Source: Raillietiella orientalis (taxonomy: Eukaryota). From it: 64,000 nucleotides of DNA. Shown piece after piece: positions 3,614-46,201 of the stretch. The translations under genes and the position numbers were made by a program. Position 1 is the first letter of the stretch. Every line of letters starts with the position of its first letter. Under the pieces are notes generated by a model that worked only from the letters and a program-made list of their open reading frames with translations, did not search any database and was not told where the DNA came from. The stretch spans positions 1,302,001 through 1,366,000 of the forward strand of contig JAYWIR010000032.1 in NCBI GenBank assembly GCA_036172245.1. The letters run 5' to 3'.

Positions 3614-5748
3614 GCAGCGGCCCAATAAAGATAAGAACGCTCTCCACCTACGGGAAGGGGAAAGGCTGCTTGGGGGAAACGGAGGAAGAGGGACCCTCGA
3701 CAGTGAGAGGGGGAAGAAGCTGCCTCCTCTCTTTGGCCCCTCCTTTCCCCTCCACTCGAGGCGGCGGCTTTCCCTGCTCGCGCCGTCGCTCGGGAGTGCC
3801 TGTCGGCTGCTCGGACGCTCCTCGGGGTTCTGTCCGCAGGAAGCTGAGATCTCGACGGCTCTAGGGAACGGTCCTTCTTCAGTCACCGCTGCCACACCCC
3901 GTGCCAGCACCGTGGTGAGGCAGCCAACAGGTACGCACCAAAGGGGATGGTCACCTCTAGAAGGCGCGAGAGGACCCCTTTTCTATCCCCCAGCCAGACG
4001 GGGGAAGAGGAGAAGCGCAGGCGACGGTTTGGGGCATGACGAGAGGAGGCACCTACAGCCGTCGCAGTGATGCCGAGCGTGTCCGCTGCCGTGAAGGCTG
4101 AACGTTCTGCAGTGCGTCGGCGTCGCTACATTTGGAAGGAAGGAGAGGGGGGGGAGGATCCTGGAAACGAAGGAAAACGCGAAATGAACGGCAGTCCGCT
4201 TGCTGAACAGGATTGCCAGGACGACTTTGCAATTATAATAAAATTGATACAATCGCAAAGAGATAATGTAAAATAATAATTCGATAAGTTAATAATGAGG
4301 ACGTGAGTGGATTATGATGTATACCTTTCGAGTTGGTGCTGCAGGCTCATTGTCGTGGAGACATGCGATGAATAACTAAAAACATTGCTAAGCCGATTTC
4401 CGTTCCGCGGCTGGGAGATTTCGGCTTTCATATTTTGAGCGTGAGTTGTAGCTCTCTGCAGTATCAGTCGAAAAAAGCAGTATCATTAGTAAATTATCAC
4501 TAGACAATTTCACTGCTGCTGCTGTTACCAATAGCCCTGCAACAGGAAGACAAAAAGAAAAGAAAAAAAAAGCCCCATCTGTACACATTCAAAAGAGTGA
4601 AAAAGCTTAGTTACTTCTAAAATTAAAAAGCCACGGGCACGCACACTGTTCGGAGAAACAGGCTTTTGAGACAGAAAGACGCACAGACTAACGGAGAGGA
4701 TCCCGCAGGTGTATTTTTCAACAAGCCTAGCATAGACTTCATGAATTCCAGTTGTTTCAATAACACTTGTAGCAGAAATCTTAAACAAATGACAATAAAG
4801 CGTATAAGAATCACACCAAAAACTTAAATGCACACGAAAAATTAATTTCGTTTCTTGGGTGTACTCATTTTTTTTAATTTTCAGAGAACAAGTCGATGGC
4901 TGACTGCTTGTCTTACCTACAAGGAAAGTCTGTATGTAGTTCTGCACTTTCAGTTGTATCTTCTGAATGGCACAGAAACAAGGAAGGAAGTAATACTATG
5001 TAGGAATTCGTTAAGGAAACCGAGTCTGTAAATTGAGGATCTCCTGGATCCAATTTACCCACATAAATTCACAACTATTTGCGGCCTTCAAAGAATCTCT
5101 TTCTCGACATGGGTTTCAGTTGACTTTGTGAGTAGTGTGAGCTTATAGTTAATTTCTCTCAGTTCAGTTCAGTACGGTTTGCTAAAGGTCACTCAAGTCC
5201 TAACATGATAATGATCACCATCTTACATCTATTAGAGAATCAGATCAGCATTCAGATGCTCACCATCCTCGGTATCTGATGGCAACAAAAAGTAGCAACA
5301 TATGTATAAAAATAAAAATGAAACGTGCAACATAAGTTTTCCCCATATATAGTTTGTCAGAGAAAGAAAACAGTTTGACTGAACTCAGCTTTGATTTTGT
5401 TTTCATTTTTCACGATTTCCCCGAGAGAGGGAACGAAAGCACTCGAGCAATACGTTGCGCTTTTGCACATTTTTTGCCGTATTTATTAGTTGGAGTTGGT
5501 ACTTTGTTTTAGTAATTTCACACCTAATAGGTTTTATTCAACGTTCCAATCGATTTTTACAATGGGTTTCTGGTTTTTCGATTCATGGATAATATTCATT
5601 TATCGCTAGTTTTCACACAAAAAGTGTTTATGTCTTCTACTGAAAGCATGAGATGAGTTAATCAACACATCCTTTGCTTAGCCTGTTTTGTTCATGCTAA
5701 ACTTTTCTCACCATGGGCCTCTTCATTCGTGATGACAGCTGTTAAAAC

Positions 5749-24918: not shown

Positions 24919-26324
24919 TCATTTTTTTGGTTTGATTTTGTCAAGTGGTAGATCAAATTCGGAATCATTGATGTTCAGCATTAGGGAACCTGTGCTAAGA
25001 TAGACTTTGTTCTGAGACTGGGCAATCTGCAACAAATTTGACATATGAAGTCAGTGGCAGGCACAATTTAACTTACTGTTTTGGCTATGTGCTGGGATGC
25101 ACGAATTTTACGTAGCTTCAAGTAACCTGGGTTTTTACTAATAGCTTCCCCTAAGTACATGATTAAGGTACATACAGGTTGTAAGCAGTGGAGCATCATA
25201 TCAAAAATCAGATTACTAAAGCATGATCATATGACAGGCAAACAAGCACCCAGCAATTTCCACCAATAATGTGTGCCAACTCTCATGTTGTTTTTTCCCT
25301 TGCACTAACAACTAAAGGAGACATGAGCAATTGCTTTGCCTTTGGTTTTACAGCTCGCAGTTGTTCAGTACTGCAGCCAAGAATCCAGAGGCCTCAACTG
25401 GGAAACTTGCTAATAACCTTTCTCACACTTATGTATCATCATTTGAATACAACACAACGTGCTAAATGAAAAGGATATCATTTGTGCTGCTTGTGCTTCA
25501 CCTTCTGCTTGCACAATCTTCTGTTGTCTCTCTTGCTTTGCTCTTTCAACATAGAATGCTGCCCGCTGAGCCTCTTGGTGGGCAACCTATCATATGTGTC
25601 ACCTCATGAATCAACAAAACACAAAGGAAAATACTTGTTTTGATTCCACAGCAGCAGTATATTCCTTACTGAAACTAAGTTCAGTAATGGATACGTCATC
25701 AAGAATGATATTGAAGTCTTTAGCACGTTCTACCAGCTGTTTGCGTACCAACAAAGATACTTGTTGGCGCTGTGTGATCAGCTGAGATGCATTAAATTTA
25801 GCCACCACACTCTTGAGCACTTCATTACAAATAGATGGAAGCACTCGTTCATCATAATCCAAACCCAAGTGGCGATACATTACAGGAAGTTGATCAGCAC
25901 GAGGTCGGGACAGAACTCGCAAAGAAATGTTCACCATTTGTAAATCCTTGCTACCAGTAGGTGACGAAATCTTTCGGGGACGTGATCTGAGATTTCACTT
26001 GGATGAAAGCTTGCATCTGGAATGCACTTACCGAATATCAAACACAATTGGATGCTGAAACCAAGGAATCCGAAAATGAAGACCTTCTGCATATATCTGA
26101 CTTCCTATGCCTCCAATCCGGTTAAACATGATTGCTCGATGGCCTCCATCCACTATAAATGCATGCATCTTTTATCTATGCAAAGATTTGTTACCTGTAA
26201 ACAATGACTGTGAAATACCAACAGCTGAAAGCCCTGCCGCAGCTAAAAGTGTAAATGCTGTGCTCATGCCCTGGGGACCTTTCCCCATCCTTCCAAATAA
26301 ATCACTCAGCTTACTTTGTGCCAT
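24919..26324 (-). CDS. PHB2: Prohibitin-2
   Basis: Exons 26324-26195, 26152-26032, 25986-25635, 25586-25479, 25154-25077, 25026-24919. Translation [20 protein letters not shown]...[15 protein letters not shown]...[21 protein letters not shown]...[13 protein letters not shown]...[12 protein letters not shown]. Confidence 0.97.
25155..25478 (-). other. U12-type (minor spliceosome) AT-AC intron of PHB2
   Basis: Minus strand: donor ATATCCTTTT starting at 25478, branch-site-like TACCTTAAT (25170-25162), terminal AC at 25156-25155. Removal joins ...[16 protein letters not shown] in frame. Confidence 0.95.
25201..25447 (-). ncRNA. U85-like composite box C/D-H/ACA scaRNA (predicted guide for U5 snRNA loop-1 2'-O-methylation and pseudouridylation)
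   Basis: C box ATGATGA (25442-25436). D box CTGA (25211-25208) is preceded by CTTTAGTAAT, antisense to U5 UUACUAAAG. Internal hairpin GCCTCTGG/CCAAAGGC has pocket TTCTT...GTAAAA, 14 nt before H box AAAGCA (25337-25332). Second hairpin CTCATGT/ACATGAG, then ACA (25274-25272). Confidence 0.9.
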
Positions 26325-26533: not shown

Positions 26534-27454
26534 TCAACGTGAAGAGGATGAGGAAGATGATCGACTATATCTTCTGCGTCTTGCTGGACTTCGTGAGCGT
26601 GAATGAGATCGTGAAGGAGTTCTCCTTCGCCTTATAGGGGACCGTCTACGTGGTGGTGAACGTCTAGCTCTGAATCTTGGTGGTGACCACCTTCTCTTCA
26701 TTGGAGGACCTCTTCTTATTGGAATTGGGCTTCTTCGTGGTGGAAGCATTCTTGGCTTTGGTAGTAGTACAGGAGCTGCAGTTATCTCTTGTCCATCAAT
26801 TTGCCCCCCATCCATATGCTTCATTGCATTCTCTGCTTCATCAGGAGTTTCAAATTCAACATAAGCAAACCCACGATTGAGATGTGGATGCAAGCGATCA
26901 GGAGGCATTTCTACATTCTTTACAGTTCCATAACAGGAAAATATTTCAACAACATGATCTTTTACAACATTTCTTGTAAGGCGACCTATATGAATTTTTG
27001 TTGGTCGAGGTGTAGGTGATCGTTCACGTTTCTTGCGTTTAGGGGATGGAGTTCTTGATTTTTGTTCCTTCTTTTCTTTAACAGGTTTCTCTTGGGCTTT
27101 CTCTTTCTCCTTTTTTTTCTTTTCTTCATCTGAAGGTACAGGTTTTGGTGAAACAGCAGGGGGAACCTTTGCTTTAACTTTTTTGTCAACTTTGCGATTC
27201 ACACTTGAGCTAGATGAGCTCGAATCACTACTAGAAGAACTAGCATGAGAAGAACTACTAGACTTAGAACTGCTAGAACTACTAGAGTGAGAACTATCAC
27301 CCGATGAACTTCGGCTCGATGAACTACTAGAGCTTGAACCTGAAGAATCCCGCTTTTTCTTAGTTTTCTCTCGGCCTCTCTCTTTTTTGTTTTCAGCTTC
27401 TGAAGCACTATCACTGGATGAGCTTTTGGCAGGACTCTGCCTATTGCGAGCCAT
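26534..27454 (-). CDS. RNPS1: RNA-binding protein with serine-rich domain 1 (ASAP/EJC component); single coding exon
   Basis: ATG at 27454 (MARNRQSP). Poly-Ser tract, RRM KIHIGRLTRNV...RGFAYVEF...MDGGQIDGQEI, and RS/P-rich tail. AATAAA on minus strand at 26464-26459. 5'-UTR acceptor TTTTTTTACAG ends at 27503. Confidence 0.97.
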   Translation of the reverse strand: MARNRQSPAKSSSSDSASEAENKKERGREKTKKKRDSSGSSSSSSSSRSSSGDSSHSSSSSSSKSSSSSHASSSSSDSSSSSSSVNRKVDKKVKAKVPPAVSPKPVPSDEEKKKKEKEKAQEKPVKEKKEQKSRTPSPKRKKRERSPTPRPTKIHIGRLTRNVVKDHVVEIFSCYGTVKNVEMPPDRLHPHLNRGFAYVEFETPDEAENAMKHMDGGQIDGQEITAAPVLLPKPRMLPPRRSPIPIRRGPPMKRRWSPPRFRARRSPPRRRSPIRRRRTPSRSHSRSRSPARRRRYSRSSSSSSSR

Positions 27455-28039
27455 AATTGAATACAATTACAATAGATATTTCAGAAACTTCTTTGTTGGG
27501 ACCTGTAAAAAAACCGTTACATATAACTGCAATAGGCAAACTCTGAAAGAGCAAAAACCAACCATCAAGAAAGCCGAACATAAATATTGAAGTTTATCCG
27601 TATTTTATACATCGCGCTCTTCAAACATGGCAAATTATTAATAACATTTTCAAGTGACTGAATAGTTTGAAATTCTGCAACTATCAAACTTGATACAAAC
27701 ACGCGCGCATACGCGTAATATAAATGGGGGGGGGGGAAAAAACGAACTTTTCGCGCACCTGTTTTCAACAGATCTCCAATTAACAATGCTTATGGCTTAA
27801 ATTGATAACATGCTCAATGCCAAATTTTTCCGTCAATACAATTTGCAATATTTCGAGGATAAACCTGTGGATACTTTCATTTCATAAGCAACCTATACAA
27901 GCAACTATGCAACTTGAAACGTATTTTCGCACACGCACGCATCTCTAATAACGCTACAGTGCTCGTTCAAAATGAGCTAAAATTTGAGCAAGATCATAAT
28001 CGGATGCAGAAAATCAGCCTATTTTCAATTTTACACATT

Positions 28040-42400: not shown

Positions 42401-42646
42401 GCGGGGGTGCCAGCGGTGGCTGGGCCACGCCCCTGCCAGGGAGCGTTGCGCGACAACTTGGCAGGCGGCCGCCGAGGGGGAGCTCCGCGCTCTCCCTCCC
42501 TCTCCTCCCTGGCGCCGTGTAATTTTTAAGAGGAGATGCCGGAGCTTTCCCGGAGGAAGTCGGGAAGGGAGGCGCGCCCGGGAAGCAGGTCGCACTCTCC
42601 ACCCCCGCTGCGCCTTCCTGCCGATGCCGCCGCGCTAGCGAGCGCC

Positions 42647-43951
42647 ATGCTGATCGCCCAGCTCGCCGCCGTCGCCATGATAGCTGCAGTCGCCCCCGCG
42701 CCGCCCAAGCGGGAAGCCGTGGAGAACCTGCTCAAGGTAGCCTCGGGGGACGCCGCGCTCGGGATGGGGTCGGCAACCGCGCGCGGTGTCTTTCAGGTGT
42801 TTGGGCTGTCCGCCCCTGCCCACCTCCGGCCCGACAGCACGCCCCCGAAGTACATGCTCGACCTGTACCACAGCACCGTCGACCGCCGAGGCGTGAGCCG
42901 CGCCCCCAACCCGTACAACGCCAAGGTCATCCGCAGCTACACCGCCGTGCCTCGGGGCGACGCGGGGGACGGCCTGCGCTTCAACTTGACGGGTATCGGG
43001 GACGACGAGCACATCCTGGGGGCCGAGCTGCACGTCTTCTCCGCCGCGTCGCGCCTCCGCAGGGATTCCGTCTGCCAGGTACCCCACATCCCTTCTGCCC
43101 GGAGAGATCAACCCTCTCTCCTCCTTTCTCCTCTCCCCGGCCAGATGAGCGTCTACCAGGTCGTCCGGGAAGAAGGGAAGCTGCAAGACGCGTCCTCCCA
43201 TAGGCTGCTGGACGCCAAGTACGTGCTGCTCTCGACCGCCGGCTGGGTCATCTTCGACGTGCGGGAGGCTGCGGAGGAATGGACCAGGCACCAGGGGCGA
43301 AACCGGAGACTGGTCGTTGCAGCGGCGTGCGGCCCCGACCTCCGGTCGCCGGGTCCGGGAGTGCCCCTACGCTTCGGTGGCCACCCGGAGAAGCAGCCTT
43401 TGCTCGTCGTCTTCGCGGGCCGACGCACCGGGGACGACCCCTTCGTCCAGCAGGGCGAGATCTCCGCCGCCCCCCGGAGAAGCGGAGGCGACTGGGAAAC
43501 CGGACGCGGAGTCTTGCTTCCCACTCCCTCCTCTCCTGGAGCGTCGCCTTCACTGGGGAGCCAGGCCGAGCGCCGGCGGAGGTCGACCACAGGGGACGCC
43601 CCGGGGCGGGAGGACGAGGAGGAGGAGGCCGACGGTGACTGTGCGTCCCACGAGATGAAGGTGGACTTCTCGGAGATCGGGTGGTCCTCGTGGATCATCT
43701 CGCCCAAGGAGTACAACGCGTACTCGTGCAGGGGCCGCTGCCGCTTCCCGCTCAACCAGGCCCAGAGGCCCACCAACCACGCCACCGTCCAGAGCATCGT
43801 CCACGAGCTCGGCCTCCACGAGAACGTCACCGTGCCATGCTGCGTCCCCACGCGCCTCCTTTCGCTCTCCCTGCTCTACTTCGACGAGAACAACAACGTT
43901 GTCATCAAGCAGTACGACGACATGATCGCCGAGCACTGCGGGTGCCACTGA
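42647..43951 (+). CDS. admp: ADMP-like TGF-beta/BMP ligand, paralog A
   Basis: Exons 42647-42736, 42797-43078, 43145-43454, 43542-43951; the last intron is tentative (GC donor, GAG acceptor). Signal peptide, prodomain PPKYMLDLY...NPYNAKVIRSY, furin site RRRR. Seven-Cys mature domain with ADMP hallmarks IGWSSWIISP, FPLNQAQRPTNHATVQSI, LLYFDENNNVVIKQYDDM. AATAAA at 44034-44039. Confidence 0.92.
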   Translation: MLIAQLAAVAMIAAVAPAPPKREAVENLLKVASGDAALGMGSATARGVFQVFGLSAPAHLRPDSTPPKYMLDLYHSTVDRRGVSRAPNPYNAKVIRSYTAVPRGDAGDGLRFNLTGIGDDEHILGAELHVFSAASRLRRDSVCQVPHIPSARRDQPSLLLSPLPGQMSVYQVVREEGKLQDASSHRLLDAKYVLLSTAGWVIFDVREAAEEWTRHQGRNRRLVVAAACGPDLRSPGPGVPLRFGGHPEKQPLLVVFAGRRTGDDPFVQQGEISAAPRRSGGDWETGRGVLLPTPSSPGASPSLGSQAERRRRSTTGDAPGREDEEEEADGDCASHEMKVDFSEIGWSSWIISPKEYNAYSCRGRCRFPLNQAQRPTNHATVQSIVHELGLHENVTVPCCVPTRLLSLSLLYFDENNNVVIKQYDDMIAEHCGCH

Positions 43952-44680: not shown

Positions 44681-46201
44681 TCACAGGCAGCCACACTCCT
44701 CTGCCACCATTTCGTCGTACTGCTTGATGACGACGTTGCCGCTGTTGTCGTAGTAGAGCAGGGAGATCGGGAGGAGGTTGCTGGGCACACAACAGGGCTT
44801 GGTGGCGTTCTTCTCCAGTGTCAGCTCGACGACGGTGCTCTGCACCATCGCGTGGTTGGACGGACGCTGTACTTGGCTCAGCGGGAAGTCGCAGTGGCCG
44901 CGGCAGGTGTACGCGTTGTATCCCATGGGCGAGATGATCCAGGAAGACCAGCCGATCTTCGGGAAGTCCACGAAGAGGTCGTAGCGGGAGCACTCGATGC
45001 TGGTCTGCGCCGCCGCGGGCGAAGCGGGTGGCGGCGGCGGCGACGAGGAGGGCGAGGTCTGCTCCTCCTCCTCCTCCTCCTCCTCCTCGTGCTGTTCCGC
45101 GGAGCCGCCGGGACTCCTCCTCCTCCTTCTCTTCCTGGTCTCCTCCAGGCCCATGCTGCTCTCCAGTATGTTGTCCACGGAGAACACGGTGTACACAGGC
45201 AGTTCCTTGTCTGGACGCGGGTGCCAGGGTCAGCGAGGCGAAGGGGAAGGGGGGAAGGAGGAGGAGGGAGGGAGGGAGGGTCGGCGGGCTACTCACGTGG
45301 AGGCAGCTTCTGCGGCCGGTCCTGGTTGTTGAATAGGACGAGGAGGGGCTGCTTGGGGCTACCCCGAGCCGCATGCTGGTAGGGGAGTTCTGCGGCCGCC
45401 TGGTCCAGCAGTGTCCTGGCGACCAGCAGGAACCCCCTGTTGGGACTGACGCTTTGCAGCCACTCTTGGATGGCGAGCCGCACGTGGAAGACGAGCCAGC
45501 CGGAGGTCGCGGGCAGCACGTAATGGCTGCCGATCAGCTTCTGCCCGGTGGCGTTGCTCGGGTCATCGCCGTCCCCGGCGCCCACCTGGTAGACCATCAC
45601 CTGCAGCAGAGAGGGCAAGGAAGGTGTGTGTATGTGTGGAGGGGGAGGTATTTCTCCTCCGGGCGACGGAGGTGGTGTGCTTCCTCACCTGGAAGATGCC
45701 GCCTCCACCCTCCTGGGCGGCCGCGCCCCCCGGGGGACCGCCGCTCTTCTTGAAGACGTGCAGCTCCGCCTCCAGCACGTACTCGTCCTGCTCGACACCG
45801 GAGATGTCGAAGAGCAGGTGGGAGGTGGTGCTGCGCTCCGCGGCCAGAAAGCTGCGGATGATGCGCGCATTGTGGGGGTTCGGTATTCTGGTGACGCCGC
45901 CCACGTCGGTGATGCTGTTGTACAGGTCCAGCATGTACTGCGGCGGCGGGGCGGCGTTCCTGGGGCGACGCGCGCCCGGGGAGGGCATCCCGAACACCTG
46001 CGGGGACGGATCGCGGTCGGCTTCCCCCTTCTCCGAGAGAGCCCCCCCCCCACTTGCCTGCTTCAACTTCTCCATGGCTTCCTCCTTCCTGGAGACGGCG
46101 GGCGGGTCCCGGGGCACGGGGCCTCCCGCCACCGCGCCCGCGAGCAGCAGGCCCGCGAGCGCCCACACCGCCGCCGCCGCTACTGCACCTACGCGGCTCA
46201 T
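44681..46201 (-). CDS. admp: ADMP-like TGF-beta/BMP ligand, paralog B (Pinhead-adjacent)
   Basis: Exons 46201-46058, 45997-45689, 45600-45297, 45210-44681; intron 1 is GC-AG (CAG|GCAAGT). Signal peptide, PPQYMLDLY...NPHNARIIRSF, furin site RKRRRRR. Mature domain IGWSSWIISPMGYNAY...FPLSQVQRPSNHAMVQS...NVVIKQYDEM. AATAAA on minus strand at 44617-44612. Confidence 0.92.

Follow-up and report, generated by a model that had tools for sequence, protein, structure and literature searches.

The small Cajal body-specific RNA (scaRNA) U85, or SCARNA10, has been shown experimentally to direct both 2'-O-methylation of C45 (Cm45) and pseudouridylation of U46 (Psi46) on U5, a small nuclear RNA (snRNA) (PMC5733568). 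It is conserved across vertebrates and invertebrates (PMC5733568, PMC6984369, PMC4053861): the fly RNA, dU85, is 316 nucleotides (nt) long and targets C46 and U47 of U5 (PMC2063731), and the chicken RNA is hosted by intron 3 of NCAPD2 (PMC2653536), while a host gene for fly U85 was not found in the literature searched. One Xenopus copy of U85 gave only Cm45 in yeast (PMC5733568). Human U89, or SCARNA12, is a 270-nt RNA that comes from an intron of PHB2, has both C/D and H/ACA boxes and carries a guide for Psi46 on U5 (PMC10618143); it is described as an independent Psi46 guide (PMC5733568). In this study, we describe a putative gene of this family in a 64,000-nt stretch of the Raillietiella orientalis genome (contig JAYWIR010000032.1, positions 1,302,001 to 1,366,000; hereafter the window), where a composite scaRNA is predicted at 25202-25446 on the minus strand, inside the only U12-type intron of the prohibitin-2 (PHB2) gene. 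We put the probability that this is a genuine U85/U89-family scaRNA gene at roughly 0.85, judging from sequence and comparison with related loci, and regard the predicted RNA as a previously unreported member of a known family that is passed over by standard thresholds. The first-pass annotation of the window had taken dual methylation and pseudouridylation as the mark of U85/SCARNA10 and had placed U89/SCARNA12 in PHB2, both in agreement with the published accounts (PMC5733568, PMC10618143).

The U85-type identity is assigned on the anatomy of the element, on a full-length, sub-threshold match to the Rfam snoU85 model and on the recurrence of this RNA, in the same intron, at two independent loci. 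The anatomy is as follows, in the 5' to 3' direction of the RNA.

25202..25446, minus strand: predicted mature composite C/D-H/ACA scaRNA, about 245 nt, from the Rfam snoU85 match and folds
25442..25445 with 25202-25205, minus strand: terminal stem, CAAA pairing with UUUG, from minimum free energy folds
25436..25441, minus strand: C box UGAUGA (context AUGAUGA, about 33 nt into the intron)
25338..25392, minus strand: H/ACA hairpin 1 with a large internal loop, from folds and aligned to the Rfam U85 5' hairpin; basal stem GCCU/AGGC, upper stem GGCUGCAGU/ACUGCgAGCU
25388-25379, minus strand: 5' pocket strand of hairpin 1, CUGGAUUCUU
25351-25342, minus strand: 3' pocket strand of hairpin 1, GUAAAACCAA
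25332..25337, minus strand: H box AAAGCA (ANANNA), directly after hairpin 1
25282..25327, minus strand: H/ACA hairpin 2 core, CUCAUGU/ACAUGAG and UCCUUU/AAGGGA, with apical loop AGUUGUUAGUGC
25270..25272, minus strand: ACA box, in the context ACAUU
25212..25222, minus strand: D-box antisense element GCUUUAGUAAU, with a 9-nt core at 25221-25213
25208..25211, minus strand: D box CUGA (47 nt before the intron end)

The terminal stem brings the C box and the D box together, as expected of a U85/U89-type RNA, and a complete H/ACA domain (hairpin, ANANNA, hairpin, ACA) is nested within the C/D domain in the order known from U85. The C box, two-hairpin H/ACA module and D box that the first-pass annotation had recognized inside the intron were all located, and both hairpins fold. 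In the minimum free energy fold, the terminal stem grows to 10 base pairs through pairing of UUGUAU (25447-25452), which lies outside the RNA, with AUAUGA (25196-25201). On this folding model, pairing just beyond the predicted ends would supply an external stem like those that promote assembly of intronic C/D ribonucleoproteins (RNPs).

The two guides of the predicted RNA converge on a single target. CTTTAGTAAT lies directly 5' of the D box, the fifth base upstream of that box is a G (25216), and a target complementary to the D guide reads UUACUAAAG. In hairpin 1, the 5' pocket strand ends in UCUU, adjoining the upper stem, and the 3' strand contributes GUAAAA, whose G precedes the H box by exactly 14 nt, inside the 14-16 nt range of H/ACA pockets. 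Between the stretches bound by GUAAAA and UCUU, two target bases stay unpaired; the complements of these strands are UUUUAC and AAGA, with those two bases between them. The D guide and the pocket strands fit one 12-nt target, UUUUAC-UA-AAGA, with agreement at seven of seven overlapping bases, and the pseudouridylation slot holds a U immediately 3' of the C that faces the fifth base upstream of the D box. The D guide and the pocket, each independently of the other, define overlapping stretches of this target, and they select this C and the U that follows it. The spacing and the shared target bear out an earlier proposal that the first H/ACA pocket brackets the next U, 14 nt from the H box. It is established that U5 loop 1 carries the sequence that these guides specify. 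Compared with the U5 loop-1 motif quoted in the first-pass annotation, rather than with this species' own U5, the D guide fits in register and sequence; no U5 gene was found by an Rfam scan of the 64 kb. Of the 15 positions that make up guide and D box, 14 agree with the consensus of U85 in Rfam, CUUUGGUAAUCUGAU, and the sole difference turns a G-U pair into an A-U pair. Two guide mechanisms predicted to aim at adjacent bases of one target are the property reported for U85 on U5.

The Rfam models point to the same family. At gathering thresholds the window yields zero matches. In E-value mode, snoU85 (RF01296) aligns over its full length (model positions 1-329 of 329) with 25203-25444 on the minus strand. 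It scores 22.7 bits, for an E-value of 7.8e-4 in a 1-kb search and of 0.05 across the whole 64 kb, where it is one of only two matches with E up to 1; a second Rfam family from the snoU85 clan matched as well. With a score of 22.7 against a gathering score of 41, a default Rfam scan is silent on this RNA. A search with U85/U89-type models, suggested in the first-pass annotation as a check, has thus come out in two parts, with a full-length snoU85 match where the RNA had been placed but a score short of the gathering level.

The host, PHB2, lies on the minus strand at 26324-24919 and has six exons. The exon/intron model gives an 897-nt coding sequence of 298 codons with zero internal stops, and the nearest proteins to exon 3 are insect PHB2 (89-93% identical). 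Four of its introns are of the GT-AG type and measure 42, 45, 48 and 50 nt, whereas intron 4 is of the AT-AC type and measures 324 nt. The features of this intron and its flanks are listed below.

25479..25586, minus strand: PHB2 exon 4, from the exon/intron model
25155..25478, minus strand: PHB2 intron 4, U12-type AT-AC, 324 nt, with its ends read from the exon/intron model
25478-25470, minus strand: 5' splice site ATATCCTTT
25169-25162, minus strand: branch-site-like ACCTTAAT, 8-15 nt from the intron end
25156-25155, minus strand: 3' terminal AC
25077..25154, minus strand: PHB2 exon 5, from the exon/intron model

U12-type AT-AC introns have the consensus /ATATCCTT at the 5' splice site, AC at the 3' end and a TCCTTAAC-like branch site near that end. 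Intron 4 presents such a 5' splice site, the 3' AC and a branch-site-like motif near its 3' end; it sits in the protein at the junction ..AQM|LGEA.., and the frame stays open across the 298 codons when the intron is spliced at its AT-AC sites. The AT-AC ends, together with ATATCCTTT and ACCTTAAT, confirm that this is a minor-spliceosome intron, as had been proposed. The proposal that a guide RNA explains a 324-nt intron beside neighbours of less than 51 nt also holds, since an RNA of about 245 nt within intron 4 accounts for the extra length of that intron.

This intron also has a published history. Intron 3 of fly CG15081/l(2)03709 and intron 5 of human PHB2 are given as orthologous U12 introns of the AT-AC type (PMC2831892). 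Of all fly genes with a U12 intron, this one shows the strongest down-regulation in U6atac mutants, and its intron is among the few minor introns kept in flies and the most sensitive to U6atac loss (PMC2952598). Intron 4 of the window gene is like the fly and human introns in gene and in minor AT-AC type, and it would be their positional orthologue, judged by gene and intron type rather than by alignment to either gene. The words snoRNA (small nucleolar RNA) and scaRNA are absent from the available text of these two papers on U12 introns (PMC2831892, PMC2952598). A full-text search found no link between the PHB2 minor intron and a U5 guide RNA in the papers covered; genome browsers or further papers may show one.

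The same arrangement appears in other genomes. Scanning metagenome contigs with PHB2 exon 3 yielded 593 matching stretches, of which 424 were confirmed as relatives and the best 80 were kept. Most of these 80 loci are 1-1.9 kb long and cross the junction uninterrupted, as spliced transcripts or genes lacking introns would: the first regular expressions showed 41 to be contiguous there, and inspection showed the same for all of a further 19 (18, plus L059); about two dozen that matched only one or neither expression were left without individual inspection. ATATCCTT occurs in four of the 80 (L015, L040, L066 and L072), and the guide and D-box motif, searched on both strands, occurs in two, L066 and L072. 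Only in these two, too, did the scripts recover an intron at the junction together with the exon on either side of it; the introns measure 436 and 402 nt, respectively, and both begin ATATCCTTTT. Rfam was run on six long loci among the 80 (L066, L072, L040, L031, L039 and L059; 27,266 bases) and returned full-length snoU85 matches in two of them.

L066, 3576-3890: snoU85 match, 32.0 bits, E = 4.5e-5
L072, 3501-3783: snoU85 match, 24.5 bits, E = 6.5e-3

The L066 exon matches one database protein exactly and shares 92-96% identity with PHB2 from several acariform mites, and the L072 exon is nearest to the same set; on these identities, both contigs look like those of mites, that is, of chelicerates. 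The database protein that is 100% identical to the L066 exon (P0225, prohibitin-2-like) is named as belonging to the fruit fly Rhagoletis zephyria. The next-nearest named proteins all come from acariform mites, and the Rhagoletis zephyria record may represent mite DNA within a fly assembly. In L040 (3297-3606), an ATATCC intron starts at the AKM|LG junction and the contig ends after 309 intron nt; no U85-like element was found in these available 309 nt. A scan of genome contigs with PHB2 exon 3 found only two distant bacterial band-7 relatives.

Comparison of the three RNAs separates what is kept from what is compensated. The span from C box to D box is 234 nt in the window, 304 nt in L066 and 272 nt in L072. 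UGAUGA and a 14-nt string of guide and D box, CUUUAGUAAUCUGA, are common to all three; the 5' pocket strands read CUGGAUUCUU, CUGGUAUCUU and CUGAUAUCUU before GG, CUGUAAA follows the upper stem in each, the 14-nt spacing to ANANNA is kept (AAAGCA, AAAGGA and ACAAAA), and ACAUU follows hairpin 2 throughout. The terminal stems, on the other hand, differ and yet pair (CAAA/UUUG, GGCCA/UGGCC and UGGUC/GACCA). Similarly, in three of the first four pairs of the hairpin 1 basal stem, both partners differ when the window is set against L066/L072 (C-G/G-C, C-G/U-A and U-A/C-G). Kept guides with compensated stems are what one would expect if a structured guide RNA were under selection, and the same RNA is conserved in the same intron between the lineage of the window and two mite-like genomes. 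L066 carries, in the 3' arm at 3814-3850, a local hairpin of 15 perfectly matched base pairs (UAUAGAGAAUUGGCU/AGCCGAUUCUUUAUA), a lineage-specific insertion in the C/D domain that neither the window nor L072 has.

Set against the described RNAs, the predicted scaRNA shares features with both U85 and U89. With U85/SCARNA10 (human, chicken and Xenopus; fly scaRNA:MeU5-C46, CR32863) it shares the nesting of an H/ACA domain in a C/D domain, a D-box guide, here a predicted one, to the U5 loop-1 C and a 5' hairpin pocket for the next U (PMC5733568, PMC2063731, PMC4053861), and the Rfam model of U85 aligns with it from end to end. It differs in length, at about 245 nt compared with the 316 nt of the fly RNA (PMC2063731) and the 329 positions of the Rfam model, in falling below the gathering score and lacking a ugAG Cajal body (CAB) box, and in its host, PHB2 rather than the NCAPD2 of chicken (PMC2653536). 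With U89/SCARNA12 it has in common a PHB2-intron host, which for SCARNA12 is given in the source at the level of the gene only, as well as C/D and H/ACA boxes and a guide, in the window a predicted one, for Psi46 of U5. Human U89 is longer (270 nt; PMC10618143) and, in the accounts available, is described only as a Psi46 guide, whereas the window RNA keeps an intact methylation guide too. As read from its sequence, the window RNA is of U85-type function at a U89-type locus.

The arrangement suggests how the RNA would be made and used. The scaRNA would be transcribed within the PHB2 pre-mRNA, released by minor-spliceosome splicing of intron 4 and then trimmed by exonucleases to the ends protected by the snoRNP, by analogy with the general biogenesis of intronic snoRNAs. 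Its D-box element would pair with U5 loop 1 and so guide fibrillarin to 2'-O-methylate the C that corresponds to human C45, and the pocket of hairpin 1 would pair on both sides of the next U (human U46), which dyskerin would convert to pseudouridine. Expression, processing, localization to Cajal bodies and both catalytic outcomes are predictions from the sequence. U5 is the one snRNA common to both spliceosomes, and feedback from minor splicing onto the spliceosomes is a speculation that the arrangement invites.

Several observations weigh against the identification of a genuine scaRNA gene. All three RNAs score below the Rfam gathering level of 41 (22.7 bits in the window, 32.0 in L066 and 24.5 in L072). 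The folding energy of the scaRNA is unremarkable (z = -1.78, with 11 of 200 shuffles folding at least as well). The D guide makes only nine pairs, and the 5' pocket strand only four contiguous pairs (UCUU) compared with five in L066 and L072. We also trained a covariance model, R1, on hairpin 1 of L066 and L072. It recovered both training sequences, missed window hairpin 1 with default filters and, with filters off over 451 nt, ranked that hairpin first at only 8.9 bits (E = 0.058); we read R1 as an over-specific two-sequence model whose result is not positive evidence. Because MAFFT alignments placed the 5' half of the window RNA out of register, covariation was tabulated by script from box-anchored coordinates in place of a formal covariation test, using three sequences with the register set by hand. 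The arrangement is, moreover, absent from some PHB2 genes. L031 (2743-3645, on a 33-kb contig) is intronless, L039 has an intron after ..EAKQV and none at the AKM|LG junction, and both gave zero snoU85 matches in the available DNA. Since PHB2 genes without the intron exist, the PHB2-intron/U85 arrangement is widespread but not universal.

The signal for Cajal bodies is a further point against it. The ugAG CAB box targets H/ACA scaRNAs to Cajal bodies, and the signal of fly C/D-type RNAs is cgaGUUAnUg (PMC4041459). A canonical CAB box (ugAG) was not found in either terminal loop of the window RNA: the loop of hairpin 1 is ACUGAACA, with UGAA instead of UGAG, and in that of hairpin 2, AGUUGUUAGUGC, GUUAGUG (25303-25309) resembles only the 3' part of the fly signal, without 'cga'. 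Loop sequences of the GUUAGUG type may represent a CAB-box variant of arthropods. The corresponding region reads AGUUAUAU in L072 and CGUAGUG in L066, and loop 1 of L066 holds CGAG.

The alternatives differ in how much of the RNA they would leave functional. The locus could encode a genuine, expressed scaRNA in which only one guide is active, giving pseudouridylation only, as reported for human U89/SCARNA12, or methylation only, as reported for one of the two Xenopus copies of U85. Precedent for both outcomes exists in that Cm45-only copy and in the description of U89 as an independent Psi46 guide (PMC5733568), and the four contiguous pairs of the window 5' pocket strand and nine of its D guide are in keeping with it. 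Both antisense elements are nevertheless intact, in register and conserved in L066 and L072, with canonical spacings (the fifth base from the D box and 14 nt to the H box), and we consider a single active guide unlikely. It is very unlikely that the intron carries a decaying, non-functional U85-type relic that forms no stable RNP. Such a relic would account for the sub-threshold Rfam score, for a length of about 245 nt against the 316 nt of dU85 (PMC2063731) and for the lack of a canonical CAB box, but every box and both guides are intact, the 14-nt guide/D-box string and the pocket geometry are kept in two distant loci with compensated stems, and 245 useless nucleotides would be expected to have been lost from a gene whose other introns measure 42-50 nt.

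A further alternative is a chance resemblance built from short boxes in an AT-rich intron. ATATCCTT by itself occurs three times in the window against 2.06 expected, and the D-guide pattern CTTTAGTAANCTGA, when up to one mismatch is allowed, has a single match across both strands of the 64 kb against 0.08 expected, with at least one match in 8 of 100 window shuffles. The match in the intron is, however, exact and on the sense strand, in the one intron predicted a priori from the host of human SCARNA12; it comes together with a C box, a terminal stem and an H/ACA domain, as well as a pocket directed at the neighbouring base, and the same composite is present in two of the two other complete introns recovered. 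The L066 and L072 matches and the shared geometry effectively refute chance, which we find scarcely credible and reject. A structured splicing-regulatory element without guide function was likewise rejected, because the two guides aim at adjacent bases of one target. A genuine U85/U89-family scaRNA with both guides in place is the reading that we carry forward.

For annotation, the consequence is that a conserved guide for spliceosome modification escapes the standard thresholds of Rfam both here and in the two contigs that resemble mites, so U85-type genes are probably under-annotated in arthropods. The presence of a predicted U85-type double function in the host gene of vertebrate U89 suggests that the older copy is the one in PHB2 and that vertebrate U85, hosted by NCAPD2, was copied later, and it is plausible that the PHB2 minor intron is the old home of the guide RNA. 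A question raised by this arrangement is whether failure of the minor spliceosome lowers modification of U5 loop 1. A bolder proposal, which we regard as doubtful, is that the ancestral bilaterian guide for U5 loop 1 lived in the PHB2 U12-type intron and still does in arthropods, tying guide production obligatorily to minor splicing, with selection acting on the tie and real feedback onto the shared U5 small nuclear RNP. If this were true, it would help to explain why the PHB2 minor intron survives where most minor introns have been shed and other introns have shrunk, and it would make minor splicing a source of real feedback onto the U5 particle used by both spliceosomes.

The surroundings of PHB2 in the window offer some further observations. 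On the same strand, about 210 nt upstream of the PHB2 start, lies an RNPS1-like protein frame (26534-27466, minus strand; 310 codons uninterrupted from stop to stop) with RS-rich ends and a central RNA recognition motif (RRM); it appears to lack introns. No database protein exceeds 79% identity to this RRM, and the named best matches come from a stick insect, a louse and a tick. The G+C content in 2-kb windows is very uneven, from 30% (10-12 kb and 32-34 kb) up to 69% (42-48 kb), and the PHB2/RNPS1 island has 40-45%. Within the block of 66-69% G+C lie two convergent frames of the TGF-beta/BMP family, at 42530-43951 on the plus strand and at 44681-45229 on the minus strand, which end in ..CCVPT..CGCH and ..CCVPS..CGCL. 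The nearest atlas clusters of the 42530-43951 frame are BMP7-like, GDF7 and ADMP.

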